Origin: Acidimicrobiia bacterium
GTDB taxonomy: Bacteria; Actinomycetota; Acidimicrobiia; Spongiisociales; ZC4RG35
Length of the DNA stretch: 64,000 bases
Direction of reading: 5' to 3'
NCBI GenBank assembly: GCA_015488325.1
Contig: WFOA01000010.1
Span: forward strand, 15,945-79,944
The translations under genes were made by a program, and so were the position numbers. The notes under the pieces were generated by a model. The model searched no databases. It saw only the letters and a list, made by a program, of their open reading frames with translations, and was not told the DNA's origin. Of this stretch, positions 41,041 to 62,830 are shown in pieces; positions within the stretch are counted from its first letter, which is position 1, and every line of letters begins with the position of its first letter.

Positions 41041-41109
41041 GGCCCCCGAGACTAATGATTGCTCCGGAAACGGCCGATACTGGAGGGGATCCACGAGAGG
41101 GGAACGACC

Positions 41110-42228: not shown

Positions 42229-42237
42229 GGCGCCTGC

Positions 42238-42263
42238 ATTTCCACTATCACGACCGTGGAATT
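42238..42263 (+). promoter_or_regulatory. suf-box copy 1: ATTTCCAC-N10-GTGGAATT inverted repeat, 12 nt upstream of sufC1
   Basis: Read directly from the sequence. One of three similarly built AT-rich 26-bp elements upstream of suf units (see findings). Confidence 0.6.
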
Positions 42264-42275
42264 TAGGCTGGGGCC

Positions 42276-43037
42276 GTGCGCACCGAGACCCCCCTCCTCC
42301 AGATCGAGAACCTCCACGCCGGGGTCGATGACGTCGAGATCCTCAAGGGCGTCGATCTCACGGTCGAACGCGGCCGCATCCACGTGCTGATGGGTCCCAA
42401 CGGCTCCGGCAAGTCCACCCTCGCCAACGTCCTCATGGGTCACCCCTCCTACGAGGTGACCGAAGGTCGCATCCTCTTCGACGGCGACGACGTCACCGAG
42501 ATGGCCCCGGACGAACGGGCACGGCGCGGCATGTTCCTCGCCTTCCAATACCCCGAAGCCATCCCCGGGGTCTCGGTGATCCAGTTCCTGCGCCAAGCCC
42601 TCTCCAACCGCCACGGCATCGACTACACGGTGCTGGAGCTGCGGCTCAAGGTGATGGACGCGATGAGAGAGCTGGGGATGGACTCCAGCTTCGCCGACCG
42701 CTACCTCAACGAGGGATTCAGCGGCGGTGAGCGGAAACGCAACGAGGTCCTGCAGATGGCGATCCTCGAGCCGACCCTCGCCATCTTGGACGAGACCGAC
42801 TCCGGTCTCGACATCGACGCCCTCAAGACCGTCGCCGAGGGGATCGACAAGCTCCGCCACCCGGACCGTGGTTTCCTCATCATCACCCACTACCAGCGGC
42901 TGTTGGACTACGTCACCCCCGACGACGTCCACGTCTTCATGGACGGCCGGGTCGTCGAGACCGGCGGCCCCGAGCTGGCGAAGCGACTCGAAGAGGAAGG
43001 GTACGAGGCCTTCCGCCGAACCGAGGTCCCCTCATGA
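42276..43037 (+). CDS. sufC: Fe-S cluster assembly ATPase SufC (copy 1)
   Basis: LQIENLHAGV...[44 protein letters not shown]...NEGFSGGERKRNEVLQM...[14 protein letters not shown] is canonical SufC. Confidence 0.95.
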   Translation: MRTETPLLQIENLHAGVDDVEILKGVDLTVERGRIHVLMGPNGSGKSTLANVLMGHPSYEVTEGRILFDGDDVTEMAPDERARRGMFLAFQYPEAIPGVSVIQFLRQALSNRHGIDYTVLELRLKVMDAMRELGMDSSFADRYLNEGFSGGERKRNEVLQMAILEPTLAILDETDSGLDIDALKTVAEGIDKLRHPDRGFLIITHYQRLLDYVTPDDVHVFMDGRVVETGGPELAKRLEEEGYEAFRRTEVPS

Positions 43038-44263
43038 GCGGTCTCGAGCACCTCCGGGCAGATTTCCCGGTGCTCCAACGGGAGATCGGGGGCAAGCCGG
43101 TGCATTTCCTCGACTCCGCCGCCAGCTCCCAGAAGCCGACGAGCGTCCTGGAAGCGATGGACGACTTCTACCGGTGCTGTTACGCCAACGTCCACCGGGG
43201 GGCGTACGCCCTGTCGGTGGAGTCGACCGAACGGTACGAGGCGGCCCGGAGCAGGGTCGCCTCGTTCATCAACGCCTCCGATCCGACCCAGGTGGCCTTC
43301 GCCCGAGGTGCCACCAGTGCGCTGAACCTCATCGCCCACGGCTGGGGTGGCGAACACCTCCGCCCCGGTGATCGGGTGCTGCTCACCGAGATGGAACACC
43401 ACGCCAACCTGGTGCCTTGGCAGATGGTCGCCGCCCGTACGGGAGCCCGCCTCGATTTCGTCCCCCTCACCGACGACTACCGGCTCGACCTGGAGGCGTT
43501 GGAGCAGAAGCTGGACGACGACGTGGCCGTCGTCGGCGTGACCGGGATGTCGAACGTCCTCGGCACCATCCCCCCGATCCCCCGGATCGCCGAGGCGGCC
43601 CGGACCGTCGGTGCTCTCCTGGTCGTGGACGGAGCCCAGCTCGTACCCCACCAACCCGTCGACGTCCAGACCCTCGGAGCCGACTTCCTCGTCTTCTCGG
43701 CCCACAAGATGCTGGGTCCGACCGGCATCGGGGCCCTGTGGGGTCGCCCCGAACGTCTCGAGGAGATGGAACCCTACGAAGGGGGCGGGGAGATGATCGC
43801 CGACGTCCAGCTCCACACCTCGACCTGGGCGGCGATCCCCCACCGTTTCGAGGCGGGGACACCGCCGATCGCCGAAGCCGTTGGTTTCGCCGCCGCGGTC
43901 GACTACCTCGACAAGGTGGGGATGGACCAGGTCGCCGCCCACGACGCCGACCTCACCGCCTACGCCCTCCAGCTCCTCGCCGAGATCCCCCACGTCACCG
44001 TGTACGGACCCGCCGACGTCGACGCCCGGGGAGGGGTGATCTCCTTCACGATGGCGGACGTCCACCCCCACGACCTGGCCACGATCCTCGACCAGCAGGG
44101 CGTGTCGGTGCGGGCGGGACATCACTGTGCCAAGCCCCTGATGCGCCGTCTCTGCGTGCCCGCCACCGCCCGGGCCTCCTTCTACGTGTACAACACCCGG
44201 ACCGACGTGGACGCCCTGGTCGAGGCCCTGGGGGTCGCATCTCGGATCTTCGGGGTCGGGTGA
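43034..44263 (+). CDS. sufS: Cysteine desulfurase SufS (group II)
   Basis: FLDSAASSQKP...ANVHRG.Y.LS...FSAHKMLGPTGIG...RAGHHCAKPL. Confidence 0.95.
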   Translation: MSGLEHLRADFPVLQREIGGKPVHFLDSAASSQKPTSVLEAMDDFYRCCYANVHRGAYALSVESTERYEAARSRVASFINASDPTQVAFARGATSALNLIAHGWGGEHLRPGDRVLLTEMEHHANLVPWQMVAARTGARLDFVPLTDDYRLDLEALEQKLDDDVAVVGVTGMSNVLGTIPPIPRIAEAARTVGALLVVDGAQLVPHQPVDVQTLGADFLVFSAHKMLGPTGIGALWGRPERLEEMEPYEGGGEMIADVQLHTSTWAAIPHRFEAGTPPIAEAVGFAAAVDYLDKVGMDQVAAHDADLTAYALQLLAEIPHVTVYGPADVDARGGVISFTMADVHPHDLATILDQQGVSVRAGHHCAKPLMRRLCVPATARASFYVYNTRTDVDALVEALGVASRIFGVG

Positions 44264-44274
44264 GGGAGGCGGAG

Positions 44275-44730
44275 ATGTCACTCGAAGAGCTGTATCGAGA
44301 GGTCATCCTCGACCACTACCGCAACCCGCGTCATCGCAAACCCCTCGACCGGGCCGACGCCCACGCCGAAGGCGTCAACCCGCTGTGCGGCGACGAGGTG
44401 ACGGTCGAACTCGCCGTCACCGACGGGAGGATCAGCGACGTCGCCGCCATCGGCCAGGGATGTTCGATCAGCCAGTCCTCGGCTTCGATGATGACCGACG
44501 CGATCCTCGGCAAGACCGTCGAAGAGGTGCGGGACCTCATCCAACGGTTCAAGGCCATGATGGACATCGACCACGAAGCCGACCTGGGTCTCGACCCGGA
44601 TCGTCCGGGGGCGGTGTTGGGGGACCTGGAAGCCCTCCAGGGCGTGCGCCGCTACCCGGTCCGGATCAAGTGCGCCAACCTCCCCTGGACCACCCTCGCC
44701 CAGGCTCTCGACCAGCTCTCCGCCTCTTAG
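44275..44730 (+). CDS. sufU: SufU/IscU-like Fe-S scaffold / sulfur acceptor
   Basis: LYREVILDHYRNPRH...NPLCGDEV...GQGCSISQSSASMMT...VRIKCANLPW is a SufU signature with three Cys ligands. Confidence 0.9.
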   Translation: MSLEELYREVILDHYRNPRHRKPLDRADAHAEGVNPLCGDEVTVELAVTDGRISDVAAIGQGCSISQSSASMMTDAILGKTVEEVRDLIQRFKAMMDIDHEADLGLDPDRPGAVLGDLEALQGVRRYPVRIKCANLPWTTLAQALDQLSAS

Positions 44731-44816: not shown

Positions 44817-45692
44817 ATGGAACGAAAGATCTGGACCACGGCGGCGGCGCTCACCGTCGTTCTCGCCGTGACCGGCGTCGCCTGGGCAGGGCTGCCCCGC
44901 GCCGCCGAGACGAGCACCACCGTGACCGTGGAGAACGAGCTGGTGGCCCCGGCAGCCGACGCCGGCACCGTCACCCTCCGGAAAGTCGCCGCCGGCCTCG
45001 AGGTCGTGTCGGTGAGCCCGGCCGACGGCTGGGAGTACACCGTGAAACGTGCCGCCGGCCGGGAGGTCGAAGTCGACTTCCGAGCGATGGACGGGACGGT
45101 CGAGTTCGAGGCCGAGATCGACAACGGCCAGGTTCGCATCAAGGTGAAGGTCCGCGTGGACGCCGGTGCCTCCTCCACGACGACCGTCGATTCCACGTCC
45201 TCGACGGTGGACAGCACCTCCACCTCGGTGGCCGCCGGCCCCTCCACCACCGAGGCGGTGACGTCGACCACCATCGACGACAGCCCGTCCACCACGGTCG
45301 ACGATACGTCGCCGACCACCATCGACGACGACCGCACCACCTCGACCACGGTGTACGACGACGACGATGACGACGACCACACCACCTCGACCACGGTGTA
45401 CGACGACGATGACGACGACCGCACCACCTCGACCACGGTGGCGCAGGGCGATCCGGCCGACTTCGGCACCAAGGTCTACGACGTCGACGGCATCGGCACC
45501 GTCACCGTGGAACGGGACGCCGACGGCCTGACCCTCATCGCCGTCGTCTCCAACCCCGACTGGACGATCAACGTCGAGAAGGCCGGTCCGAAAGAGATCG
45601 AGATCGAGTTCAGGAACGGAGAGCTCGAGGTCAAGTTCGAAGCCGAGCTCGAGTACGGGGAGCTCCGGATCAAGATCGAGCGGGGTTCCTGA
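44817..45692 (+). CDS. Secreted protein with two copies of an uncharacterised ~65-aa beta-rich domain separated by a Ser/Thr/Asp-rich linker
   Basis: AGGAGG RBS. Signal peptide MERKIWTTAAALTVVLAVTGVAWA. Domain copies GTVTLRKVAAGLEVVSVSPADGWEYTVKRAAGREVEVDFRA..GTVEFEAEI and GTVTVERDADGLTLIAVVSNPDWTINVEKAGPKEIEIEFRNGELEVKFEAEL. Confidence 0.8.
   Translation: MERKIWTTAAALTVVLAVTGVAWAGLPRAAETSTTVTVENELVAPAADAGTVTLRKVAAGLEVVSVSPADGWEYTVKRAAGREVEVDFRAMDGTVEFEAEIDNGQVRIKVKVRVDAGASSTTTVDSTSSTVDSTSTSVAAGPSTTEAVTSTTIDDSPSTTVDDTSPTTIDDDRTTSTTVYDDDDDDDHTTSTTVYDDDDDDRTTSTTVAQGDPADFGTKVYDVDGIGTVTVERDADGLTLIAVVSNPDWTINVEKAGPKEIEIEFRNGELEVKFEAELEYGELRIKIERGS
45336..45440 (+). repeat. Imperfect tandem coding repeat (45/42-nt units) encoding TTSTTVYDDDDDD
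   Basis: accacctcgaccacggtgtacgacgacgac... occurs at 45336, 45381 and 45423 (the last copy partial). Confidence 0.7.
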
Positions 45693-45696
45693 CCGG

Positions 45697-46974
45697 TCAA
45701 TCCTTCCCGAACACCACCCGGAGAACCGCCCCGCCCTCGGGGCGGTTCTCCGCGTCGAGGTGGCCGCCCGTCCGCGCGGCGGTACGGGCCACGATGTCGA
45801 GTCCGAGACCCGTCGACCCGGCCCCGCTCTCCCCCCGGCGCAGGGGATCGACCCCGTCGGGGAACCCGGGTCCCTCATCGGCGACTTCCAGGACGGCACC
45901 ACCGGCGCCTCTATCGACCTTCACCGTGAACCCGGTCCCCGGAGGGGTGTGGGCGAAGACGTTGCCGACGAGGGCGTCGACGGCGGCTGCGACGTCGCCC
46001 GGAGGGAGCGGCACCGGCGTGGGATCGTCGGTGATCTTCACCTCCAGGGCGCGGTCCTGGTCTTCGGCGGCGACCGCCCAGAAGGCGATCCGGTCTCGGA
46101 CCACCGTCCCCAGATCGCAGGAGGCGGGCCGGTCGTCGGGCCTGGACCGGGCCTCTTCGATGAGCAGGTCGACTTGGCGCTGGAGGCGATCGAGCTGGGC
46201 GAGGAGGGACTCCCGCTCGGGGGATGCTTCGAGCCGCTCGACGCGCAAGCGGAGGGCGGTGAGGGGGGTGCGAAGTCGATGGGAGAGGTCGGCGACCGAT
46301 TCCCGCTCGGCGGCGAGGAGGTCGTCCAACCGCCGTGCGAGCCAGTTGAACGACCGGGCGACCTCCTCGATCTCGACCGGACCTTCCAGGGGAACCCGAA
46401 CCTGCAGATCGCCGGCTCCGAGACGGCGGGCGGCCGTCGCCAGGCGAGTGACGGGACGAACGAGGGACGTTCCCAGTCGGTCGGCCACCAGGACGGCAGC
46501 GACGATCATCCCCAACCCGAGCAGCGCCAAGAACACCCAGGCGGTGGCCACACCCGACCGCAACTGGTCGTCGGTGACGAAGGCCGTGACCACGATCGGG
46601 CCTTCCCGGGTCACCACCGGGAGCGCCACCTGCCAGCCCCCGTCGACCTCGTCGGCCACCGCACGTTGCTCATCGGCGGCGAGGCGGGTCACCGCGCTGG
46701 GCAGGGCGGACCCGATCAACCCTCCGTCGGGGAGGATGACGCTCACTCCGGGAGGTAGGGGCCCGAGGAGGTCGGCGAGGACGTCGACGTCGAGGCGGTC
46801 CACCTGGGCGAGGGCGAGGGCGACGAGGCTCCCCACCTCCTGAATGTCCCGTTCAGCGGCGACCCGGGCTCGGGTCTCCGCCTGGTGGCGGACCAACAGG
46901 GCCAGGGGCACGGTGAAGGCGATGACGACCAGGGACGTCACGGCGGCGGAGACGAGGACGAATCGGCGTCTCAC
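45697..46974 (-). CDS. Sensor histidine kinase (two TM segments, HAMP, HisKA, HATPase_c)
   Basis: GTG 46974 (GTGA overlap with the RR stop). H-box ADLSHRLRTPLTAL. G-boxes DEGPGF and GSTGLGL. Confidence 0.9.
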   Translation of the reverse strand: MRRRFVLVSAAVTSLVVIAFTVPLALLVRHQAETRARVAAERDIQEVGSLVALALAQVDRLDVDVLADLLGPLPPGVSVILPDGGLIGSALPSAVTRLAADEQRAVADEVDGGWQVALPVVTREGPIVVTAFVTDDQLRSGVATAWVFLALLGLGMIVAAVLVADRLGTSLVRPVTRLATAARRLGAGDLQVRVPLEGPVEIEEVARSFNWLARRLDDLLAAERESVADLSHRLRTPLTALRLRVERLEASPERESLLAQLDRLQRQVDLLIEEARSRPDDRPASCDLGTVVRDRIAFWAVAAEDQDRALEVKITDDPTPVPLPPGDVAAAVDALVGNVFAHTPPGTGFTVKVDRGAGGAVLEVADEGPGFPDGVDPLRRGESGAGSTGLGLDIVARTAARTGGHLDAENRPEGGAVLRVVFGKD

Positions 46975-47654
46975 GATTCGGGTTCGACCAGCTTCACCCC
47001 CACACCGTGAACGGTCCGCAGGTAGCGGGGCTGCTGCGCAGACTCGCCCAGTTTCTTGCGAAGCCACGACAGGTGCACGTCGACGGACCGCTCACTGCCG
47101 CCGTACGGCTCCCGCCAGACTTCGGCCATCAGCTCCCGCTTCGACACCACTTCGCCTGCACGTTCCGCCAGCACCCGCAACAGGTCGAACTCCTTGGGAC
47201 TGAGGTCCAGGGGTTCACCGTCGAGGGAGGCTTCCCGGGAGGACGGGTCCACCACCAGGCCGCCGATGACGATGGGTCCGTCCCGCCGACCCGACTCGGC
47301 CCGGCGAAGCACCGCCCGCACCCTCGCCTCGAGCTGGGCCACCGAGAAGGGCTTCACGAGGTAGTCGTCGGCGCCGGCGTCGAGGGTACGGACCACCGAC
47401 TCGTCCCCTTCCCGGGCGGTGATGACCACGACGGGCACCTGCGACACCGCTCGGATCATCCGGAGCAGCTCCGAGCCGTCGAGGTCGGGCAGGCCCAGGT
47501 CGAGGATCACCAGATCGGGCGACGATCCGACGACCTGGCGGAGACCCTCCATGGCGGTGGCCGCCGATTCGACGTCGTGACCCTGGCGGGCCAGCGTCTC
47601 GGCGACCAGGTGCCTGATCTCGAAGTCGTCCTCGACGACGATCACACGGGACAT
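46971..47654 (-). CDS. OmpR/PhoB-family response regulator
   Basis: MSRVIVVEDD...DLVILDLGLPDLDG (receiver domain). C-terminal winged helix ...VDVHLSWLRKKL...YLRTVHGVGVKL. Confidence 0.95.
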   Translation of the reverse strand: MSRVIVVEDDFEIRHLVAETLARQGHDVESAATAMEGLRQVVGSSPDLVILDLGLPDLDGSELLRMIRAVSQVPVVVITAREGDESVVRTLDAGADDYLVKPFSVAQLEARVRAVLRRAESGRRDGPIVIGGLVVDPSSREASLDGEPLDLSPKEFDLLRVLAERAGEVVSKRELMAEVWREPYGGSERSVDVHLSWLRKKLGESAQQPRYLRTVHGVGVKLVEPES

Positions 47655-47693
47655 CGGCCCCGAGCATATCGGCCGTGCCACCCCGGAGATCGG

Positions 47694-47723
47694 ACCTTGA
47701 CGAAACCTTGACTACCCCTTGAC
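47694..47723. promoter_or_regulatory. Three direct repeats (ACCTTGAC, ACCTTGAC, CCCTTGAC) with exact 11-bp phasing; candidate OmpR-family RR binding array
   Basis: Repeats start at 47694, 47705 and 47716. They sit in the 103-nt divergent region between the RR gene (start 47654) and the secreted-protein gene (start 47758). Confidence 0.6.
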
Positions 47724-47757
47724 TTCCGAGTGCGCGGATCTCGGGGAGAATGACGGT

Positions 47758-48405
47758 ATGCGCCGGCTCGTACTCGTCGTCGCCTGGATGGGCGCCACCG
47801 TGATCGTCACCGCCACCGCCTGGGCGGTGGTCTCCGCGGTGGAGGACCGGGTCAGCGACCGGCCCCTCACCCCCCTCATCGCCACCACCTTGGCGGTCGA
47901 CGAGACCACGACCACCACCTTGCCTCCGGTGACGGACCCGTCGGCCGAGACCCCGCCGCCGGCGACCGGCGACGAACCGACCACGACCACGGTCGGAGCC
48001 GAGACCGACGACACGGTGGCCTCGACGGGAAACACCGGAGGGGGCACCGTCCCCACCACCGCCGCCCCGACCACCACCACGACCTTGGTGACCACCACGA
48101 CGACCGTCCCGACCACCACCACGACCGTCGCGACCACCACGACCACCTCGACGGAGCCCTCCGGCGAGTGGCAGACGAAGACGATCGTGACGCCGGGAGG
48201 CAGCCTCACCATCAAGCACCGCCCCGACGAAGTCGTCTTGACGTCGACGACTCCGGCCGCCGGCTTCGTGGTCGAGATCAAAAACGCCGGTCCACCCGAA
48301 GTGGATGTCGAGTTCGAGACGAACGACGACACCGTCAAGATCGACGTGCGGGTCCGCTACGAGAACGGCGTCCTCATCGAAGACATCGAAGAGGAGCGAA
48401 GCTGA
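47758..48405 (+). CDS. Secreted/membrane-anchored Thr-rich protein with one copy of the same ~65-aa domain as 44817..45692
   Basis: MRRLVLVVAWMGATVIVTATAWAVV is a signal or anchor. Poly-Thr linker (TTTTTLVTTTTTVPTTTTTVATTTTTS). C-terminal GGSLTIKHRPDEVVLTSTTPAAGFVVEIKNAGPPEVDVEFETNDDTVKIDVRV. Confidence 0.75.
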   Translation: MRRLVLVVAWMGATVIVTATAWAVVSAVEDRVSDRPLTPLIATTLAVDETTTTTLPPVTDPSAETPPPATGDEPTTTTVGAETDDTVASTGNTGGGTVPTTAAPTTTTTLVTTTTTVPTTTTTVATTTTTSTEPSGEWQTKTIVTPGGSLTIKHRPDEVVLTSTTPAAGFVVEIKNAGPPEVDVEFETNDDTVKIDVRVRYENGVLIEDIEEERS

Positions 48406-48408
48406 ACC

Positions 48409-49800
48409 TCAGAGGATGCCACCCTCGGTCATCTTCTTGATGTCGAGGGCGGCGTCGACCTCTTCGGCGCTCATCAGCCCCTTCTCGAGGACCACCTCCC
48501 GCACGGTCCGCCCGCTGGCGAATGCCTCTTTCGCCACGGCGGCTCCGGCGTCGTAGCCGATGTGGGGGTTGAGGGCCGTTACCACGATGACGTTTTTCTC
48601 GACGAGTTCACGGGCCCGTTCTTCGTTCGCCTCGATCCCGGTGACACACTTCTCGGCCAGCACCCGCGACGCGTTGCCGAGGATCGTGATCGCCTGCAAC
48701 AGGTTGTGGGCGATCAACGGCATCATCACGTTGAGCTCGAAGTTGCCGTTGGCTCCCCCCCAGGTGATGGCGGCGTCGTTGCCCATCACCTGCGCCGCCA
48801 CCATCATCACCGCCTCGGGGATGACCGGGTTCACCTTGGCGGGCATGATCGACGAGCCGGGTTGGAGTGCCGGAAGCCGGATCTCGCCGATCCCGGTGAC
48901 CGGACCGCTCGACAGCCAGCGGAGGTCGTTGGCGATCTTGAACAGTGACGTGGCGACGGTCTTGAGGGTGCCGGCCGCCTGCACCGTGGCGTCCTTCGCC
49001 GCCTGCGCCTCGAAGTGGTTCGTGGCTTCCCGGAACGGGATCCCGGTCCGCTCGGAGATGACGTCGATCACCTTCGCGGCGAAGCCTTCCGGACAGTTGA
49101 TCCCGGTCCCTACGGCGGTTCCCCCGAGGGGGAGCTCCTCGAGTTCGGGGAGGACCTTCTCGACCCGTTCGATCCCCTTGCGGACCTGGGTGGCGTAGCC
49201 GGAGAACTCCTGGCCGAGGGTGACCGGCGTGGCGTCCATGAGGTGGGTCCGTCCCGACTTCACGACCCGTTCGAACTCCCGGGACTTCTCCTCCAAGGCG
49301 AGGGCCAGCGCCGACAGTCCCGGGATCAGCACTTCCCGCACCTCGGCGGCGGCGGCGACGTGGATCGCCGTGGGGATCACGTCGTTCGACGACTGACCGA
49401 AGTTGACGTGGTCGTTGGGATGTACGAGTTTGGACCCCAGGGCTCCACCCAGGACCTGCGAAGCGCGGTTGGCGATCACCTCGTTGGCGTTGGTGTTCGT
49501 CGACGTCCCCGATCCGGTCTGGAAGATGTCGACCGGGAAGTGCTCGTCGAAGTCGCCCCTCGCCACTTCGGCGGCGGCCTGCTCGATCGCCTTCGCCTTC
49601 TCGGCGTCGACGTACCCTTCGGGTCCTGCGACGGCGGCCACCGCCCCTTTGATGACGCCGAGGGCCCAGATGAACCGACGGGGGAAACGGATCCCCGAGA
49701 TCGGGAAGTTCTCGATCGCCCGTTGCGTCGAAGCTCCGTAGAGGGCGTCGGCCGGGACCCGGACCTCGCCCATCGAGTCTCTCTCGGTGCGGTACTCCAC
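48409..49800 (-). CDS. fumC: Class II fumarate hydratase
   Basis: [11 protein letters not shown] signature. [19 protein letters not shown]. 463 aa. GTG start with GAAGGAG RBS. Confidence 0.95.
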
Positions 49801-49873: not shown

Positions 49874-50674
49874 TCAGAAGTCGAAGGGAGTGTCGGTGAA
49901 GAAGTCCGACGGCCGGCGTTCCGACGGGGTGGGTTCGGGCTGGAGACCGAGACGCTCCCGCAGGCCTTCGTATCCTTCTGCCTCCAGCTCGTCGGCCAGC
50001 TCGGGTCCTCCCGAACACACGATCCTGCCGTCCATCATCACGTGGATCCGGTCGGCCCGCAGGTAGCGGAGGATGCGGGAGTAGTGGGTGATGAGCAGCA
50101 CCCCGAGGTCGGGGCCTCGCATCTCCTCCACGGCGGCCGCCACCTCCCGGACGGCGTCGATGTCGAGTCCGGAGTCGATCTCGTCGAGCAGCGCCGCCTT
50201 CGGACGGAGTACGGCCATCTGGAGGATCTCGGAACGCTTCTTCTCCCCGCCGGAGAGGTCGTCGTTGACCGACCGGTCCAAGAATTCGGTGGCGCCGAGG
50301 CGTTCGGCGAGCTCCCGGGCCCGGGTCAGTGTCGCCTCCGGGTCGGCTCCCCACTCTTCCGCCGCCTCTCGGAGCAGCTCGGACAGTTTCACCCCGGGGA
50401 TCTCCACGGGATACTGGAAGGCCTGCAGGAGCCCCAACCGGGCCCGCTCGTCCACCTCGAGGCCCAACACCTCCGTCCCGTCGAGGAGGGCGGATCCCGA
50501 GACCTCGTAGCCGTCTTTTCCGGTGAGCACATGACAGAGGGTCGACTTGCCCGAACCGTTCGGGCCCATCACGGCGTGGACCTCGCCGAAACCGATGTCG
50601 AGGTCCACGCCACGCAGGATCTCGACGGAACCAACCGAGGCGTGGAGGTCGCGGATCTGGAGGGCGAGGCTCAT
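49874..50674 (-). CDS. sufC: Fe-S cluster assembly ATPase SufC (copy 2, with ~20-aa C-terminal extension)
   Basis: From ATG 50674 (ATGA overlap with the Rieske stop): [10 protein letters not shown]...ILRGVDL....[17 protein letters not shown]...[16 protein letters not shown]...[13 protein letters not shown]. Confidence 0.9.
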
Positions 50675-50985
50675 GACGGCTCCACGGACAGGTAGACGTC
50701 GCCGTCTTCCACCTTCACCCGGTAGGTGGGCACCGGCCGGGTCGCCGGAAGGGTGAGGGGTTTGCCCGTCTTGAGGTCGAAGACGGCGCCATGGCGGGGA
50801 CATTCGATCTCGTGGTCCACGACCTCTCCTTCGGCGAGGGACGCCTCGGCGTGACTGCATCGATCACCGAGGGCGTAGACGTCGTCTCCGACCCGGACGA
50901 GGGCGATCCGGTGCCCGGGAAGGTCGACCCGCACCGGGGCGCCCGGGACCAGATCGTCCATCGACGTCACCTTCACCCAGCTCAT
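50671..50985 (-). CDS. Rieske [2Fe-2S] ferredoxin-like protein embedded in the suf operon
   Basis: CSHAEASL...CPRHGAVF (CxH...CxxH). 104 aa. ATGA overlaps on both sides. Confidence 0.9.
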   Translation of the reverse strand: MSWVKVTSMDDLVPGAPVRVDLPGHRIALVRVGDDVYALGDRCSHAEASLAEGEVVDHEIECPRHGAVFDLKTGKPLTLPATRPVPTYRVKVEDGDVYLSVEPS

Positions 50986-52247
50986 CCCAACCTCCCTGCG
51001 GCCTGAGCGGCACCGAACCGTTCGTCCACTTCCCGCCGGAGCGGATCGGCCATGGCGTCCGACGGGAGGCGTTCGATGACCTCTTCGAAGAACCCGTGCA
51101 CCAGGAGGCGTTCGGCCCGGTCACGGGAGAGACCCCGGCTCATCAGGTAGTACAGATGTTCGGCGTCGAGGGGCCCGACGCTGGAGCCGTGCCCGCAGAC
51201 CACGTCGTCACAGAGGATCTCGAGGTTGGGGACCGAATGGGCCTTCGCCCCGTCGGAGAGGACCAGGTTGCGGTTGGTCTCGAACGCCGATGTGCGGGCG
51301 GCGGTGGGAGCGATCCGCAACAGACCGGTGAACACCGACTGGGCGTGATCTTCCACCGCGCCTTTGAGGAGGACGTCGGAGCTGGTGGAGCGGCCCACGT
51401 GGTCGATCACCATCCGGTAGTCGAGGACCTGGGTGCCTTCACCGAAGTACAACCCGACGACCTCGGCGGAGCTACCGTCGCCTTCGAGGCGCACCCCGAG
51501 GTCGAGCCGGGCCGTCGACCCCCCGAGGCCCGCCTCCCCGACCCGCAGGGTGGCGTCCCGGGCGAGTCGAGCCCGCTCGTGGGCGACGAGGACGGTGGCG
51601 TCGCCGAGGAGCTGGACGGTGGTGAACCGCAGCCGGGCCCCCTGGGCGACGTCGAGTCCGAGCAGCGGAGCGACGACGGCGTCGACGCCGTCGGGGCTGC
51701 GGTAGACGACCACCACGTTCGCCTCGGCGTTCTCACCGACCTCCACCGTCACTTCCGGGAACGAGATCGTGCCGCCGGCGGTGGCTTGGAGTTCGACCAC
51801 CACCGGACGGACCTCGACCGCACCGGCCGGGACGCCGACGAACACCCCGTCGCCGCCGAAGGCGAACCCGGCGGCGGCGAACTTGTCCACCGAGGGGTCG
51901 ACGAGGGATGGGACCGCTCCCCGCTCCCACCGTTCCGCCCCCCGGCCGATTCGCACGGTGTCCCCACCGTCCACCGACACCGTGTACCCGTCCACGACCA
52001 CGACCCGGCCGGCAGCGTCGCCGATCGCCGACACGAAGGGGCCGGGCTTCAGCGGTTGTCCGGGTTCTTCGGGGAGGGCGAGGGTGTCGAAGTCGACGTC
52101 GAGGTCGACGTATCTCCAGGCCTCGTCGGTGTCGGACGGAGGGGGGATCTCGCGGTAGAGGTCGAAGGCTTCGAGTCGCCGCCGAGCGAGGGGCTCGGGG
52201 GCGTCGCGATTCAGGACCTCGACGGTCGTGGCGTTCAGGGCGAGCAC
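50982..52247 (-). CDS. sufD: Fe-S cluster assembly protein SufD
   Basis: 421 aa with beta-helix-type repeats. The C-terminal ...NLEILCDDVVCGHGSSVGPLDAEHLYYLMSRGLSRDRAERLLVHGF is a SufD/SufB family signature. Confidence 0.9.
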   Translation of the reverse strand: MLALNATTVEVLNRDAPEPLARRRLEAFDLYREIPPPSDTDEAWRYVDLDVDFDTLALPEEPGQPLKPGPFVSAIGDAAGRVVVVDGYTVSVDGGDTVRIGRGAERWERGAVPSLVDPSVDKFAAAGFAFGGDGVFVGVPAGAVEVRPVVVELQATAGGTISFPEVTVEVGENAEANVVVVYRSPDGVDAVVAPLLGLDVAQGARLRFTTVQLLGDATVLVAHERARLARDATLRVGEAGLGGSTARLDLGVRLEGDGSSAEVVGLYFGEGTQVLDYRMVIDHVGRSTSSDVLLKGAVEDHAQSVFTGLLRIAPTAARTSAFETNRNLVLSDGAKAHSVPNLEILCDDVVCGHGSSVGPLDAEHLYYLMSRGLSRDRAERLLVHGFFEEVIERLPSDAMADPLRREVDERFGAAQAAGRLG

Positions 52248-52280
52248 GGTCTCTCCGCAGGCAGGGACGGCCCGAATCGT

Positions 52281-52306
52281 ATTCTCACTACCGCCGTATT
52301 GGAAAT
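52281..52306 (-). promoter_or_regulatory. suf-box copy 2: (gene orientation) ATTTCCAA-N10-GTGAGAAT, 33 nt upstream of sufD
   Basis: Read directly from the sequence. It overlaps the last codons and stop of the UDG gene. Confidence 0.55.
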
Positions 52307-52977
52307 TCGTCGAGCAGCGACCGCGCCCGCTCGAACACGGCGTCGAGCATGGCCTCGGTGAGACGCCCTGTGAAGGTGTTCTGCTGGGACGGATGGTAGG
52401 AGGCGAGGAGGGTGGCGGCCCCCACCCGGACCTCGACCCCGTGGCCGAAGCGGGGACGGGGACGGGGGACCTCCCGCCCCAGGTCGCTCAACACCCGCAG
52501 CACCCCCCGGAAGGCGACACCGCCCAGGGCGACGACCACGGAAGGGTCGAGGAGTTCGAGTTCTTCGGCGAGGAACGGGCGACATGCCGCCTCCTCGGCC
52601 CCGACCAGGCGGTTCTGGGGCGGCGCGCAGCGGGCCACGGCGGTGATCCAGCAGTCGGTGAGCACGAGACCGTCGTCACGGCCGACCGACTCCGGCCGGT
52701 CGGCGAACCCGGCCCGGTGCAGCGCCCGGTACAGCCAGTCGCCGGACCGGTCTCCGGTGAACATGCGCCCCGTACGGTTGGCGCCGTGGGCGGCGGGGGC
52801 GAGGCCCACCACCACCATCCGGGCATCCGGGTCTCCGAATCCGGGTACGGGGCGCCCCCAATAGGTCTCGTCCCGGTAAGCCGCCCGTTTGGTCCGAGCG
52901 ACCTCCTCCCGCCACTGCACCAGACGGGGACATCGCCGGCACTCGACGATCTCGGCTTGGAGGTCGGCGAGCCTCAC
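52288..52977 (-). CDS. Uracil-DNA glycosylase, family 4/5 (UdgB-like)
   Basis: ECRRCPRL...VVVGLAPAAHGANRTGRMFTGD.SG..L...HPSQQN. GTG 52977 forms a GTGA overlap with the upstream stop. Confidence 0.85.
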   Translation of the reverse strand: MRLADLQAEIVECRRCPRLVQWREEVARTKRAAYRDETYWGRPVPGFGDPDARMVVVGLAPAAHGANRTGRMFTGDRSGDWLYRALHRAGFADRPESVGRDDGLVLTDCWITAVARCAPPQNRLVGAEEAACRPFLAEELELLDPSVVVALGGVAFRGVLRVLSDLGREVPRPRPRFGHGVEVRVGAATLLASYHPSQQNTFTGRLTEAMLDAVFERARSLLDEFPIRR

Positions 52978-54515
52978 TCCCGACCCGCCGGATCCAGGGC
53001 CTCCACCGTCACGTTCGACAGTGCGTTCCACAGCATCCATCCGAACCCGAACCCTTCGGCGGCGTCGATCTGTGCTCGGACCTGTTGGGGGTCGTAGCCG
53101 AAATCCTGGAGCCAGGGACGGATGACCGTCCCCGAGTCGAGCCGCTCCACGCCGTCGGCGAGGGCCCGGGAGACCACCTCGGCCGGGTAGTCGTTGGGGT
53201 TGTCGAACCCGAACCACCCGCGGCCGTAGTGGCTCGGGTACAGCATCGGGGAGATCACGTCGACGACTTCGGCGACGGCCGGCCAGAGCTGGCCGATCCC
53301 GCCGTCGTCCAGGGCGGTAGTGGTGAACCCGAACACGTCGGCGGCCACCGCGCATCCGAGGGGATGGAGCTGGTCCCGGGCGCGGCCGAGGAACCCGACG
53401 ATGGTCCGTACACGGGTCTGGGGGTCGGATCCCTCGTCGAACACGGTCGACGGCCCGAAGCCGTCCGGATAACGCACGTAGTCGAACTGGATCTCGTCGA
53501 CGCCCCGGGTACAGGCCTCCCGGGCGATCTGGAGTGCGTAGTCCTGGGCGGCGGGATCGGTGGGGTCGAGGAACCACTGCCCGCCCTTGCGGTACGGGGC
53601 CCCCCGGGCCGTGTCCCACACCGCCATCTCCGGGGCACGGCGGGCGGCGATGGGATCCTGGAAGGTGACGATCCTGGCCACCACGTAGAGGCCGGCGGCG
53701 TCGGCCTGGCGAACCACCTCGTCCAGCGAGTACGGCTCCGCGACGATGGTCCCGAGCCGCAGCGCCGTGGCGACGTTCGAGTCGTACCAGATGAGGCCGT
53801 CGTCGTCTTTCAGGTCGATCATCAGAGCGTTGAGCTCGGTCGTCTCCGCCATGCGGAGGTATTCCTGGCGGCGGGATTCGTCGGCGAGGACCTCACCGCC
53901 GATGTGCACGGCCTTCACCACCCGGGGGACCACTTCGATCTGGCGGAACCCGGGGCCTCCGTCCCAGTCGAAGGCGGTGTTCTCCCATGCCGGGCGCCAG
54001 ACGTCCACCGGCCCCGCCTCCGCTCGCCGCAGCAGGAACCGTCCTGTCTCGTCGGTGACCGTCGAAGCACCACCAGCCGTGATCCGTACCGCCCCCACCG
54101 GCCGGCCTTCGGGGTCACGTACCTCGCCCCGGAGCATCCGGGCCTGGACCCGGAAACGCACCGGCCCGTCGGGACGTCGAGGGATCGACATGGTCCGGGG
54201 CAGGTACCCGGGGGCGTCGAAGGTGAGCTGGGTCCCCGGCGGTCGCCACGCGAGCAGCACGGTTCCCTCCGGGTCGGTCACCCCCAGGGAGTCGCCGTCG
54301 GCCAGGACCTCGACACCGACCACCGGGACTCCCTCCTCGTCTACGACCAGCACGGCGACGTCGGCGCTGCCGGCCGCCACCCGCCATCCGGCGAGTGCCG
54401 CCCACAGGAGGGTGACGAAGAGGAGCAGCCGGAGCTGTCTGGGTCGGGACACCGACGTGGAGGATACCGACCGCCCGGGGGTGCGCACCCCGGCGACCAT
54501 CCCAGGATTTTCCAT
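52974..54515 (-). CDS. Secreted putative glycoside hydrolase (DUF4015/COG1306-like TIM-barrel) with N-terminal carboxypeptidase-regulatory-like repeats
   Basis: Signal/anchor LRLLLFVTLLWAALAGW. ...ALMIDLKDDDGLIWYDS...YVVARIVTFQD...WFLDPTDP...GVDEIQFDYVRYP. The start is ambiguous (ATG 54515 or 54500). Confidence 0.7.
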   Translation of the reverse strand: MENPGMVAGVRTPGRSVSSTSVSRPRQLRLLLFVTLLWAALAGWRVAAGSADVAVLVVDEEGVPVVGVEVLADGDSLGVTDPEGTVLLAWRPPGTQLTFDAPGYLPRTMSIPRRPDGPVRFRVQARMLRGEVRDPEGRPVGAVRITAGGASTVTDETGRFLLRRAEAGPVDVWRPAWENTAFDWDGGPGFRQIEVVPRVVKAVHIGGEVLADESRRQEYLRMAETTELNALMIDLKDDDGLIWYDSNVATALRLGTIVAEPYSLDEVVRQADAAGLYVVARIVTFQDPIAARRAPEMAVWDTARGAPYRKGGQWFLDPTDPAAQDYALQIAREACTRGVDEIQFDYVRYPDGFGPSTVFDEGSDPQTRVRTIVGFLGRARDQLHPLGCAVAADVFGFTTTALDDGGIGQLWPAVAEVVDVISPMLYPSHYGRGWFGFDNPNDYPAEVVSRALADGVERLDSGTVIRPWLQDFGYDPQQVRAQIDAAEGFGFGWMLWNALSNVTVEALDPAGRE

Positions 54516-54571
54516 TGTGGTTGTCCGTGGGTGGTGATAGCGTTGCCTTCCAAGGGGACAGAGGTGATGAG

Positions 54572-55504
54572 GTGGCAGAGCACCGCGGGTCCGGTGCATC
54601 GGTGGCGGATGCCGTAGGCCTCTACCTCGACGAGGTGGCGGATCACTATCTGCTCACCGCCGAGGACGAGGTTCGGCTGGCCAGGGCGATCGAACAGGGA
54701 CGACGCGCCCAGAGCCGTCTCGACGGTGACACCGAACTCGATCCCGCCGAACGGGCTCGTCTGGAACAGCTCGTAGAAGAAGGCCACGACGCCAAACTCA
54801 CCTTCATCCGGTGCAACCTGCGGCTCGTCATCTCGATCGCCAAGCGGTACACGGGCCGCGGCCTCGACCTCCTCGACCTCATCCAGGAGGGCAACCTCGG
54901 GTTGATCCGGGCGGTGGAGAAGTTCGACTGGCGGAAAGGCTTCAAGTTCTCCACGTACGCCACCTGGTGGATCCGTCAGGCCATCACCCGGGGACTGGGG
55001 AACAACGCCCGGACGATCCGCCTCCCGGTGCACATGGTCGACGTCGTCCGCACCGTCCACGACACCCACCAGCAGCTCGCCGAAGAGTTCCACCGGGCAC
55101 CGACGGTGGACGAGATCGCCGCCGTCTCCGGGCTCGACCCCGACCGTGTCGAAGCAGCCCTGTCGGCCCCCACCGACACCGTCTCCCTCGACCGGCCCGT
55201 CGGTGACGACGGCGACGCCGAACTCCACGAATTCATCTGCGACGACGACACCCCCGACCCCTTCACCACCGCCGTCGAACGGATGCGGGACGCCGAGATC
55301 CAACGGGCGCTCTCGATGCTCAGCCGGGAAGAGCGGGTCGTCCTCACCCTCCGGTTCGGGCTCGACGGCCGCGACTCGTGGACGCTGTCGGCGGTGGGCA
55401 AGCTGTTGGGCATGACCCGGGAACGGGTCCGCCAGATCGAGAGTCGGGCCCTCGCCAAGCTCCGCCATCCCTCGGCCGCCGTCCAACTGGAGTCGCTCCT
55501 GTAA
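54572..55504 (+). CDS. Sigma-70 family sigma factor, group 1/2-like (regions 1.2-4.2 present)
   Basis: DAVGLYLDEV..HYLLTAEDEV; NLRLVISIAKRY.GRGL.LLDLIQEGNLGLIRAVEKFD..KGFKFSTYATWWIRQAITR; LGMTRERVRQIESRALAKLRH. The start is uncertain (GTG 54572 or 54602; the track uses TTG 54515). Confidence 0.85.
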   Translation: MAEHRGSGASVADAVGLYLDEVADHYLLTAEDEVRLARAIEQGRRAQSRLDGDTELDPAERARLEQLVEEGHDAKLTFIRCNLRLVISIAKRYTGRGLDLLDLIQEGNLGLIRAVEKFDWRKGFKFSTYATWWIRQAITRGLGNNARTIRLPVHMVDVVRTVHDTHQQLAEEFHRAPTVDEIAAVSGLDPDRVEAALSAPTDTVSLDRPVGDDGDAELHEFICDDDTPDPFTTAVERMRDAEIQRALSMLSREERVVLTLRFGLDGRDSWTLSAVGKLLGMTRERVRQIESRALAKLRHPSAAVQLESLL

Positions 55505-55563
55505 CGGCCCTTCGGGGTCGAGACCCTGGCCATCGGCGAACCCTGCTGTAGCCTGACCCTCCG

Positions 55564-55836
55564 ATGGAAGCCATCAGCAGCGAAATCGTCGACGCGTTCA
55601 TCCGGATCGCCGTCGCCGGCGGCATCGGAGGCCTCTTCGGAGGGTTCATCGGAGGTCGGGGGAAGAACCTGATCGGCTCGATCCTGTTGGGAATCATCGG
55701 CGGGATCTCGGCTTCGGCGATCCTCCGGATCGCCGGGGTGCCCGCCATCATGAACGCCGGCGAAGGATTCGGACTGGTCTACGGCTTCGTCGGTGGTTTC
55801 ATCCTGGCGTTCGTCGTGGGAGCCTCCAATCGCTGA
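55564..55836 (+). CDS. GlsB/YeaQ/YmgE-family (transglycosylase-associated) small membrane protein
   Basis: 90 aa with Gly-rich TM helices: AVAGGIGGLFGGFIGG...LGIIGGISASAIL. Confidence 0.7.
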   Translation: MEAISSEIVDAFIRIAVAGGIGGLFGGFIGGRGKNLIGSILLGIIGGISASAILRIAGVPAIMNAGEGFGLVYGFVGGFILAFVVGASNR

Positions 55837-56623
55837 CCTGCCCCGCTCCGGAGTCACCAAGCTCGACATCGCCCGGGACTGGCTGCCCCGGTACACGGGT
55901 ATGCCGGTCGAGGATTTCGGCGACTACATCCTGCTGACGAACTTCGGCTACTACGTGGAGCGGTTCGCCGAGCGTTTCGACTGCCCGATCACCGGCACCG
56001 ACCGCCCCATGCAGGCGGCCACCAACGACGACGGCCTCACCATCGTCAACTTCGGGATCGGCACCGCCAACGCCGCCACGATCATGGACCTGCTCACCGC
56101 CCGCCGGCCCGCCGGGGTCCTGTTCCTCGGCAAATGCGGCGGGCTCAAGCATTCGACCGAGATCGGGCATTTCATCCTCCCGATCGCCGCCATCCGGGGA
56201 GAGGGCACCTCCAACGACTACTTCCCGCCCGAAGTCCCCGCCCTCCCCTCCTTCAAGCTCCACAAGTTCGTCTCCGACCGCATCGTCGCCCGGGGCCTCG
56301 AATACCGCACCGGCGTGGTCTACACGACCAACCGCCGGGTGTGGGAACACGATCAGGAGTTCCTGGCCCGGCTCCGCCGGCTCACCGCGATCGGCATCGA
56401 CATGGAGACCGCCACCCTGTTCATCGTCGGGCACGCCAACCGGATCAGCCGCGGGGCGCTGCTGTTGGTCTCCGACGTGCCCTTTCATCCCCAGGGGATC
56501 AAGACCGAGGAGAGTGACGCGCGGGTCACCGCCCAATGGTCGGACACCCACCTCGACATCGGTATCGAGGCGATGAGCCAGATCGCCCGGGAAGGCGAGC
56601 CGATCAAACACTTCACCTTCTGA
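55793..56623 (+). CDS. AMP nucleosidase-like nucleoside phosphorylase (PNP_UDP_1 family, catalytic domain only)
   Basis: WLPRYTGMPVEDFGDYILLTNFGYYVERF parallels the Amn RLRHYTGT..E.F....LFTNY..YV..F region. FLGKCGGL and IDMETATLF also fit. The conserved region precedes the first ATG, so GTG 55793 is used (44-nt overlap with the upstream gene). Confidence 0.75.
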   Translation: MVSSWRSSWEPPIADLPRSGVTKLDIARDWLPRYTGMPVEDFGDYILLTNFGYYVERFAERFDCPITGTDRPMQAATNDDGLTIVNFGIGTANAATIMDLLTARRPAGVLFLGKCGGLKHSTEIGHFILPIAAIRGEGTSNDYFPPEVPALPSFKLHKFVSDRIVARGLEYRTGVVYTTNRRVWEHDQEFLARLRRLTAIGIDMETATLFIVGHANRISRGALLLVSDVPFHPQGIKTEESDARVTAQWSDTHLDIGIEAMSQIAREGEPIKHFTF

Positions 56624-56645
56624 GCGGCCCGGTAGAGTCCCCGGG

Positions 56646-56903
56646 GTGTTCGGGTTCCTGTTCTCGCTGGTCGTCGCCGCCTTCGCCGGGTGGCTGGGAG
56701 CCCGTCTGGCGGGCCGTGACGAACCCCTCGGGTGCCTGTCGTCCATCGTGTTGGGGTTCATCGGATCCCTCTTCGGGTCGTGGCTGGCCCGCACCCTCGA
56801 CCTGCCCCTCCTCTGGACGGTCCGGGGCTTCCCGGTGATCTGGGCGGTGGTGGGCGCGGCCCTGTTCGTCGCCCTGCTCAACCTCGTCGGCGGGCGACGC
56901 TGA
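56646..56903 (+). CDS. GlsB/YeaQ/YmgE-family small membrane protein (second copy)
   Basis: 85 aa: FLFSLVVAAFAGWLGARLAG...IVLGFIGSLFGSWLAR. Confidence 0.7.
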   Translation: MFGFLFSLVVAAFAGWLGARLAGRDEPLGCLSSIVLGFIGSLFGSWLARTLDLPLLWTVRGFPVIWAVVGAALFVALLNLVGGRR

Positions 56904-56927: not shown

Positions 56928-58340
56928 TCAGCCGACGGCGCCGGCCTCCGCCATGTTCAGCTCGATGAGCCGGTTCATCTCGACCGCGTACTCCATCGGG
57001 AGCTCCTTCACGATCGGTTCGATGAACCCGGCCACGATCATCGAGGTCGCCTGGTCTTCGGTGAGGCCGCGACTCATCAGGTAGAAGAGCTGCTCCTCCC
57101 CGACCTTCGAGACGGTCGCCTCGTGGCCGATCTCGGCGTCGTTCTCTTCGATCTCCATGTAGGGGTAGGTGTCCGACCGGCTCTTCTCGTCGAGGATCAG
57201 GGCGTCGCAGCGGACGAAGCTGCGCGAATCCTCGGCGTCCGGCTCGACCCGGACCAGACCCCGGTACCCGGCCCGACCTCCGTCCTTCGAGATCGACTTG
57301 GAGACGATCGTCGACGTGGTGTGGGGGGCGGCATGCACCATCTTCGCCCCGGTGTCCTGGTGTTGGCCTTTCCCGGCGAAGGCGATCGACAGCACTTCGC
57401 CGTGGGCCCCGGGCTCCATGAGCCACACGGCCGGGTATTTCATCGTCAGGCGGGAACCGAGGTTGCCGTCGACCCACTCCATGGTGGCGTCGGCGTAGGC
57501 CATCGCCCGTTTCGTCACGAGGTTGAACACGTTCGACGACCAGTTCTGGATGGTCGAGTAGCGGCAGCGTCCGCCCCGCTTGACGACGATCTCGACGACG
57601 GCGGCGTGGAGAGAGTCGGTCGAGTAGATCGGAGCCGAACACCCTTCGACGTAGTGCACGTAGGCGCCCTCGTCCACGATGATGAGGGTCCGTTCGAACT
57701 GACCCATGTTCTCCGAGTTGATCCGGAAGTAGGCCTGGAGGGGCTGTTCGACGTGGACCCCGGGGGGCACGTAGATGAAGGACCCTCCCGACCAGACCGC
57801 CGAGTTGAGGGCGGCGAACTTGTTGTCGTTGGGCGGGATCACCGTCCCGAAGTACTGGCGAACCAGCTCTTCGTACTCCCGCAGGGCGGTGTCCATGTCG
57901 GTGAACAGCACCCCTTGGGCTTCGAGCTCCTCCCGGTTGCGGTGGTACACCACCTCGGATTCGTATTGGGCGGTCACCCCGGCCAGATATTTCCGTTCCG
58001 CCTCCGGGATCCCGAGCTTCTCGTAGGTCTCTTTGATCTCCTCGGGCACCATGTCCCAGGACTTGGCCTGACCCTCGGTGGGTTTGATGTAGTAGTAGAT
58101 GTCGTCGAAGTCGATGGTGTCGAGGAGCCCACCGCCGCCCCAGGTGGGCATCGGCTTGCGAAGGAAACGCTGATAGGCGCGCAGACGGAAGTCGAGCATC
58201 CAGGCGGGCTCGCCCTTCATGTCCGACATCTGGCGGATGATGTCCTCGGACAGCCCCTTCTGGGGCTTGAAGACGTACTCCTCCTCGGAGTCCTTCCAGC
58301 CCAGCTTGTAGGCACCCAGGTCGATGTCAACGGTTGCCAT
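56928..58340 (-). CDS. sufB: Fe-S cluster assembly protein SufB
   Basis: 470 aa. ...[17 protein letters not shown]...[25 protein letters not shown]...STIQNW...[23 protein letters not shown] is canonical SufB. Confidence 0.95.
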
Positions 58341-58372
58341 GCGGCGTCTCCTCGAGGGTCTCGACGAAGCGA

Positions 58373-58398
58373 ATTTCTACTACGCAGATAGTGTATAG
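58373..58398 (-). promoter_or_regulatory. suf-box copy 3: (plus strand) ATTTCTAC-N10-GTGTATAG, 32 nt upstream of sufB
   Basis: Read directly from the sequence in the 71-nt gltB-sufB gap. Same 8-N10-8 architecture as copies 1 and 2, with a weaker second arm. Confidence 0.5.
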
Positions 58399-58411
58399 GA
58401 CTCGGGCGGGT

Positions 58412-62830
<4,419 letters not shown>

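Follow-up and report, generated by a model that had tools for sequence, protein, structure and literature searches.

Evidence for a dispersed three-unit suf regulon with two SufC paralogues in an Acidimicrobiia bacterium

Why should the genes of one machine that builds iron-sulfur (Fe-S) clusters lie scattered over a bacterial chromosome, and which ATPase drives the machine when two are encoded? Both questions are raised by a 64,000-nucleotide stretch of an Acidimicrobiia bacterium (assembly GCA_015488325.1, contig WFOA01000010.1, positions 15,945 to 79,944 of the forward strand), which we call the window. Here sufB (56928-58340) stands 4.6 kb apart from the genes sufD-Rieske-sufC2 (49874-52247), while sufS and sufU sit about 5 kb away on the opposite strand behind a second, canonical sufC, which we name sufC1 (42276-44730, +). 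A sequence-only reading of the window had seen in this arrangement a suf operon split by an intervening block. Our reading is that this Acidimicrobiia bacterium has, very probably, an ordinary SUF system that was inherited vertically and is organised as a dispersed three-unit suf regulon, not as a single operon. As a variant of a well-known system it is typical of its lineage: the three-unit layout is the norm in a large group of Acidimicrobiia, and nothing unusual is particular to this window.

Coding frames in this high-GC DNA (~68-70%) were chosen by the G+C content at third codon positions (GC3), and identities were assigned with Pfam and with curated NCBIfam models (Table 1). The coordinates and identities of the separated suf genes given by the sequence-only reading held in full, including the second sufC, which reaches 340 bits on TIGR01978. 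Within the 64 kb, SufB and SufD are each encoded once and SufC twice. SufB and SufD both score above their curated cutoffs and conserve the cluster-ligand residues: by alignment, a Cys of SufB falls on E. coli SufB Cys405 and a Cys-x-His of SufD on C358/H360. What the window holds in place of a contiguous, one-strand sufRBDCSU operon is three units on two strands. These would be transcribed as sufB alone, as sufD-Rieske-sufC2 with fumC possibly included, and as the oppositely oriented sufC1-sufS-sufU. The sufB unit is a single gene, convergent with plus-strand genes that end at 56903. In the second unit sufD, Rieske and sufC2 are joined by 4-nt start/stop overlaps, the listed sufC2 open reading frame (ORF; 49874-50860) being too long, as the true start overlaps the Rieske stop codon at 50671-50674. 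A 4-nt overlap likewise joins sufC1 to sufS.

To place this layout, one genome per species was scanned for relatives of SufD, which gave 39 loci onto which all window proteins were mapped, each relative being seen ±10 kb around sufD. Seventeen Acidimicrobiia relatives were compared: 15 metagenome-assembled genomes (MAGs; L001-L014 and L033), a 2.6-Mb contig of circular size (L040, ERZ25072999:ctg321930) and the cultured freshwater strain IMCC26207 (L042, GCA_001025035.1, LCZK01000008.1). The three-unit plan recurs in all 15 MAGs, over a range of SufD identity from 83% down to 44%: sufB; at least one unrelated gene, with a sigma factor gene on the opposite strand among those present; a DUF4015 gene and a uracil-DNA glycosylase (UDG) gene; sufD-Rieske-sufC2; fumC; and the inverted sufU-sufS-sufC1. 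Not every gene is visible in every locus, since some flanks are cut off, and L012 is without sigma and DUF4015 matches. L040 follows the plan without the UDG and with sufB more than 8 kb away. IMCC26207 shows sufB, a GGDEF gene and a 121-amino-acid ORF, then sufD-Rieske-sufC2 and the inverted sufC1-sufS-sufU. In sum, sufB is adjacent to sufD in none of the 17 Acidimicrobiia relatives, and sufD-Rieske-sufC2 is contiguous in 17 of 17. The architecture persists while the genes between sufB and sufD differ: most loci have sigma-DUF4015-UDG plus variable extras, and three (L011, L012, L014) carry an opposite-strand M23-type peptidase gene between UDG and sufD. The contiguous operon sufR-sufB-sufD-Rieske-sufC-sufS-sufU is found in the Actinomycetes loci, a MAG (L034) and a Cellulomonas (L036), in agreement with the earlier statement that contiguity is usual in actinobacteria.

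Could the block nevertheless have arrived recently, by insertion or horizontal transfer, and so have broken a contiguous sufBDC operon in this genome? The contiguous genes of the two Actinomycetes relatives would fit such an event, as would the AMP nucleosidase (AMN) gene and the second GlsB gene of the block, which occur only in the window and in L001, so that the block is in part of later date than its remainder. However, wherever an Acidimicrobiia locus shows both sufB and sufD, the two lie apart, down to 44% SufD identity and in IMCC26207, and the core of the block, sigma-DUF4015-UDG, is kept in place in the relatives. This is the outcome of a synteny comparison that the sequence-only reading had set beforehand as decisive against itself: the layout is dispersed in the relatives, and no contiguous operon appears within the ±10 kb seen. 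The check on the composition of 52288-56903 that it had also proposed, made here against the rest of the window, gave no foreign signature. GC3 of the block genes is 0.82-0.92 against 0.87±0.02 for 13 other window genes, and an index of the codon adaptation index (CAI) type is 0.70-0.80 against 0.72±0.04 for the same background. Repeats flanking the block boundaries are at chance level only, no tRNA genes were found, Pfam and NCBIfam searches gave no integrase, transposase or other mobility domains, and a terminator scan showed no excess of terminators. By composition, which is native, and by the conservation of its core in relatives, the block does not qualify as a genomic island or mobile element. 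On synteny, codon usage and GC3, repeats and tRNA genes we reject a recent insertion, and we hold such an event to be extremely improbable. Because the same layout recurs in relatives with differing filling, and because the composition is native, the separation of sufB and sufD is an old lineage trait. We read the 4.6 kb as native genes for housekeeping and stress that occupy an old breakpoint of synteny, with a content that changes from relative to relative.

What could hold three separate units together is a shared operator. Fifteen sites from related genomes, none of them from the window or L001, went into a position weight matrix, which finds exactly three sites in the 64 kb, one before each suf unit and each scoring on both strands. 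The next best, non-suf score in the window is 7.8 bits and the 99.99th percentile is 3.6, while a plain 16-mer search returns the same three sites. This suf-box is about 27 bp long, with a 16-bp palindromic core close to CACTATC-NN-GATAGTG between A/T tracts (TTTC...GAAA/AAAT), and it appears to lie near or over the presumed -10 region of each unit. Orthologous boxes stand before sufB in L002, L005, L007, L011, L014 and L042, before sufD in L001-L003, L005, L007-L010, L012, L013, L040 and L042, and before sufC1 in L001, L005-L010, L013, L040 and L042. In L040 the same matrix marks the sites of sufD and sufC1; in IMCC26207 it marks one upstream of each of sufB, sufD and sufC1. The box next to sufD had been said to overlap the UDG stop codon, and its core does cover that codon (52288-52290). 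The suggestion that sufD has its own control site at the block boundary is borne out by the conserved suf-box there. Two genes that adjoin such boxes may be mentioned: a predicted lipoprotein without assigned family (41059-42201, +) lies directly upstream of the sufC1 box and is kept at that place, with 29-70% identity, in L001, L005, L007, L009 and L010, and in IMCC26207 the 121-amino-acid ORF between sufB and sufD (LCZK01000008.1, 7809-8174), Cys-containing and without Pfam match, is immediately upstream of the sufD box.

The geometry of the suf-box agrees with that of known SufR operators. The Mycobacterium tuberculosis SufR footprint reads ATTTTGTCACACT-N5-TGTGAAAAT, and a structural study describes how SufR reads the flanking A/T tracts through an AT-hook and tolerates changes in the core. 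In our own set, the Cellulomonas locus L036 carries AAATTGACAAC-N6-GTTGCCAAAT upstream of sufR. The window sites match the footprint, the A/T-tract requirement and the L036 site in geometry, and three inverted repeats with A/T tracts at suf promoters are, as far as the sites go, what is expected of a SufR regulon. The likeness extends to the SufR (COG2345) systems of M. tuberculosis, Streptomyces avermitilis and Synechocystis, where a ~27-bp inverted repeat with A/T-rich flanks also sits at suf promoters. From these sites we infer that an unlinked SufR-type [4Fe-4S] repressor holds all three units under common control. In the most likely mechanism, this sensor of the SufR/COG2345 type would be encoded elsewhere in the genome, sit on all three boxes, and let go of all of them together when the Fe-S supply fails. 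With one repressor on three shared sites, coordinate suf expression would survive the lost contiguity.

Several observations weigh against this interpretation. SufR is a winged helix-turn-helix protein with an RGRP AT-hook and three Cys. Searches of the 64-kb window and of the Acidimicrobiia loci (±10 kb of sufD) gave no SufR homologue, either with an RGRP regular expression on coding-like ORFs or by tblastn with the SufR proteins of L034 and L036, so the regulator could belong to another family. The core of the window sites, CACTATC-NN-GATAGTG, differs from the published SufR cores CAAC-N6-GTTG and ACACT-N5-TGTGA. A consensus scan of this high-GC sequence detected no promoters or transcript ends, and the unit boundaries are those that we infer. 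Finally, with the relatives seen ±10 kb around sufD, a second contiguous suf cluster could exist elsewhere in those genomes.

Set against the actinobacterial operon sufR-sufB-sufD-(Rieske)-sufC-sufS-sufU of Mycobacterium and Streptomyces, which L034 and L036 represent here, the window has the same protein set except for the linked sufR, the same sub-order sufD-Rieske-sufC, and an operator that is likewise a palindrome with A/T flanks. It differs in having three units on two strands, no linked sufR, an operator that is present three times with a different core, and two conserved SufC paralogues.

This leads to the second question. That the window encodes two distinct SufC ATPases is confirmed: both copies score above the curated equivalog cutoff of TIGR01978 (212.8 bits), and they are 53% identical to each other. 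Walker A, the Q-loop Gln, the signature SGGE, Walker B with the catalytic Glu, the D-loop and the H-loop are intact in both. Both also carry (R/K)KR, LDE(T/I)DSGLD and ITHY, the motifs being invariant across 54 SufC2 homologues, and the best PDB matches of both are SufC structures. SufC1 is the slower-evolving, more canonical copy, with 72-92% identity across the loci compared to 61-90% for SufC2. A degenerate ATP site, the hallmark of heterodimeric ATP-binding cassette (ABC) ATPases, was sought in both copies and not found; there are only conservative, clade-specific changes. They fall, at SufC1 148-183 and SufC2 140-175, within SufC motifs that do not otherwise vary: SufC1 reads GGERKR against the GGEKKR of SufC2 and other SufC, and SufC2 reads LSGGE and DEID in place of the FSGGE and DETD common to SufC1 and the others. 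Such substitutions may reflect co-adaptation across the ATP-site dimer interface.

The C-terminal extension noticed earlier on copy 2 is real and runs about 20 residues past the end of SufC1. An AlphaFold2 (AF2) model of SufC2 has a mean predicted local distance difference test (pLDDT) score of 89.7, with a core above 90 and residues 243-266 at 39-72; this tail (49874-49948, -) is probably disordered according to the model. At its end stands a motif that is conserved, S-[DE]-[FY]-F-T-D-T-P-F-D. A related motif, DDPFFSD, is found in IMCC26207, and the tail is missing in L011, L012 and L014. Public data hold more than 120 SufC2-type clusters with the tail and more than 120 without it, and all named ones come from Acidimicrobiia or unclassified Actinomycetota. 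Is sufC2 then a real sufC at all, and not a different ABC ATPase or a decaying duplicate? The unusual tail, a score below that of SufC1 on the SufC model and a long branch in the tree would suit such doubts. But 273 bits against a cutoff of 212.8, intact ATPase motifs, SufC structures as best PDB matches, a confident AF2 model and more than 240 clusters of orthologues in public data speak for a conserved SufC, and the alternative named with the original observation fails. Family scores and conservation rule it out, and we give it practically no weight.

In a neighbour-joining tree of 34 sequences, SufC1 and SufC2 are each monophyletic, with 88% and 97% bootstrap support. Because the two form separate clades across the relatives, the pair predates the divergence of these genomes. 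SufC2, on its long branch, groups weakly with the Actinomycetes SufC (62%), and its gene stands where Actinomycetes operons have their one sufC; SufC1 falls beside an Anaerolineae SufC. A larger tree of 134 sequences with representatives at 50% identity had at most 5% support at its deeper nodes and did not separate duplication from acquisition of the pair; a cluster look-up gave almost no taxonomy.

Which copy pairs with SufB and SufD can be framed by known complexes. In the Escherichia coli SufBC2D complex (PDB 5AWF; PMC6006206), two copies of one SufC are present, one on SufB and one on SufD. The window likewise encodes one SufB and one SufD with the ligand residues (equivalents of Cys405 and of Cys358/His360) and SufC with all motifs. 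Unlike E. coli, it has two distinct SufC genes, so that a different protein might sit at each of the two positions. More than one sufC per genome is also known from Methanosarcina (sufC1B1/sufC2B2) and Paenibacillus (sufC2D2B2), where whole SufBC(D) modules are duplicated; here, at least within the 64-kb window, only SufC is duplicated, beside a single SufB and a single SufD. Possible scaffolds are a SufB-SufC1-SufC2-SufD heterocomplex, a SufC2 homodimer or a SufC1 homodimer.

We lean towards one machine that uses both SufC copies, because one operator is shared by all three units and sufC2 is coupled to sufD, because the clade-specific substitutions lie in the signature motif and in the segments after Walker B, and because rates are similar within pairs (SufB 80-95% and SufC1 72-92% identity across loci; SufD 44-83% and SufC2 61-90%). 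None of these points is decisive. A stricter version, in which SufC1 and SufC2 have become subfunctionalised into an obligate heterodimer, with SufC2 on SufD (co-translated with it and likewise fast in evolution), SufC1 on SufB (both slow in evolution) and the acidic-aromatic SufC2 tail docking a partner such as Rieske or SufS/SufU, is a tentative proposal that we think rather unlikely. If true, it would be a natural asymmetric SUF scaffold of the ABC type that replaces SufBC2D and has been kept across a large part of the Acidimicrobiia. About equally doubtful are separate modules, in which a SufC2 homodimer drives SufB-SufD and SufC1 works with SufS-SufU or another partner, or conversely SufC1 serves the scaffold and SufC2 is accessory. 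The translational linkage of sufC2 to sufD-Rieske and of sufC1 to sufS through 4-nt overlaps fits this division, as do the location and weak grouping (62%) of SufC2 with the single SufC of Actinomycetes and the complete ATPase motifs of both copies. Yet the slower evolution and more canonical sequence of SufC1 (340 vs 273 bits; 72-92% vs 61-90%) is not what one would expect of a copy released from scaffold duty, the operator shared by all three units points to a single machine, and to our knowledge no SufC function apart from SufB and SufD is established.

The dispersed regulon shows that the Acidimicrobiia, a large and mostly uncultured class with many members in metagenomes from fresh water, sea and soil, do not follow the textbook picture of a contiguous suf operon in actinobacteria. 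Here a tripled operator, and not operon structure, appears to maintain coordinate control. In the literature we found no description of a three-operator dispersed SUF regulon with a conserved SufC pair in Acidimicrobiia, and nothing relevant on the occurrence of two SufC in either Acidimicrobiia or Actinobacteria. Since nature here sets two SufC beside one SufB and one SufD, one can ask whether the SufC positions of SufBC2D are equivalent, and as the cultured strain IMCC26207 has the same layout, the question is open to experiment.

Table 1. Features of the suf region and its neighbours, in window coordinates.
Feature	Position	Strand	Evidence or remark
suf-box 3, upstream of sufC1	42235-42266 (core 42243-42258)	+	27.8 bits
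sufC1	42276-43037	+	TIGR01978, 340.2 bits (cutoff 212.8)
sufS	43034-44263	+	TIGR01979, 567 bits, above cutoff
sufU	44275-44730	+	TIGR01994, 156 bits, above cutoff
fumC (class II fumarase)	48409-49800	-	Lyase_1 and FumaraseC_C matches
sufC2	49874-50674	-	266 aa; TIGR01978, 273.1 bits (cutoff 212.8)
Rieske ferredoxin	50671-50985	-	between sufD and sufC2
sufD	50982-52247	-	TIGR01981, 242.3 bits (cutoff 222)
suf-box 2, upstream of sufD	52278-52309 (core 52286-52301)	-	26.2 and 26.8 bits on the two strands
UDG, family-5 type	52288-52977	-	PF03167, 5.7e-28; best PDB match 2d3y (Thermus family-5 UDG), 2e-55
DUF4015 putative glycosyl hydrolase with CarboxypepD_reg domain	52974-54599	-	PF13200, 3.5e-84
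Group-2 (SigB-like) sigma-70 factor	54515-55504	+	Pfam regions r1.2, r2, r3 and r4 matched; start coordinate uncertain
Small Gly-rich membrane protein	55564-55836	+	no Pfam match; 31% identical to GlsB at 56646-56903
AMN	55793-56623	+	curated-model identity
GlsB/Transgly_assoc protein	56646-56903	+	family match
sufB	56928-58340	-	TIGR01980, 728.7 bits (cutoff 346.4)
suf-box 1, upstream of sufB	58370-58401 (core 58378-58393)	-	26.1 bits
gltB	58412-62830	-	upstream of sufB

Downstream of sufC2, after 73 nt and on its strand, comes fumC, which is possibly co-transcribed with it. It stands between two suf units in L001-L010, L012-L014 and L040, and not in IMCC26207. Its product is Fe-S-independent, and the gene may be expressed together with SUF to supply an isozyme that spares Fe-S. 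One could go further and draw DUF4015-UDG-sufD-Rieske-sufC2-fumC as one transcript through which an Fe-S client, the family-5 UDG, and a fumarase that needs no Fe-S would be tied to the assembly of clusters. UDGs of families 4 and 5 carry a [4Fe-4S] cluster, the genes share one strand and follow closely on each other (40 nt from UDG to sufD, 73 nt from sufC2 to fumC), and DUF4015-UDG is directly upstream of sufD in 11 loci (L001-L010, L013), with fumC downstream in most. However, the conserved operator between UDG and sufD implies separate control, UDG is missing in L040, the opposite-strand peptidase intervenes between UDG and sufD in L011, L012 and L014, and IMCC26207 has neither DUF4015, UDG nor fumC at sufD. 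So long a transcript is therefore improbable in our view.

The block itself holds six genes, where the sequence-only reading had counted seven; we found no seventh coding ORF in 52288-56903. Four of the six lie on the opposite strand, and not one as it had stated. Of its two GlsB genes the second stands (GlsB/Transgly_assoc), while the first does not, as this small Gly-rich protein has no Pfam match and only the resemblance to the second given in Table 1. The sigma factor gene, divergent from DUF4015, reaches 338 bits on the SigB model NF005920, which is under the cutoff of that model. With the start of sigma annotated at 54515 and that of DUF4015 at 54599, the two genes overlap by 85 nt, so that at least one start is placed too far upstream. 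The DUF4015 stop and the GTG start of UDG overlap as GTGA at 52974-52977 (-), which suggests translational coupling of the glycosidase and the UDG; the pairing is kept in L001-L011, L013 and L014. Sigma is kept in place, and DUF4015 upstream of sufD, in these same loci as well as in L033 and L040; the UDG is missing from L040 and L042. In several relatives, as in the window (54515-55836), the SigB-like sigma gene is followed by one for a small glycine-rich, GlsB-like membrane protein (for example L005, 6207-7373, and L007, 6157-7380), which suggests a conserved stress-response pair. The variable part of the block is 55564-56903, where other relatives have different genes; here AMN and the second GlsB, confined to the window and its closest relative L001, are recent additions shared with that locus alone.

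Between sufU and fumC, two Thr-rich, apparently secreted proteins without Pfam family (44817-45692, +, and 47719-48405, +) flank a histidine kinase/response regulator pair (45697-47681, -). The C-terminal domains of the two resemble each other weakly (24% over 54 amino acids), and this Thr-rich/histidine kinase insert occurs in the window and in L001 only.

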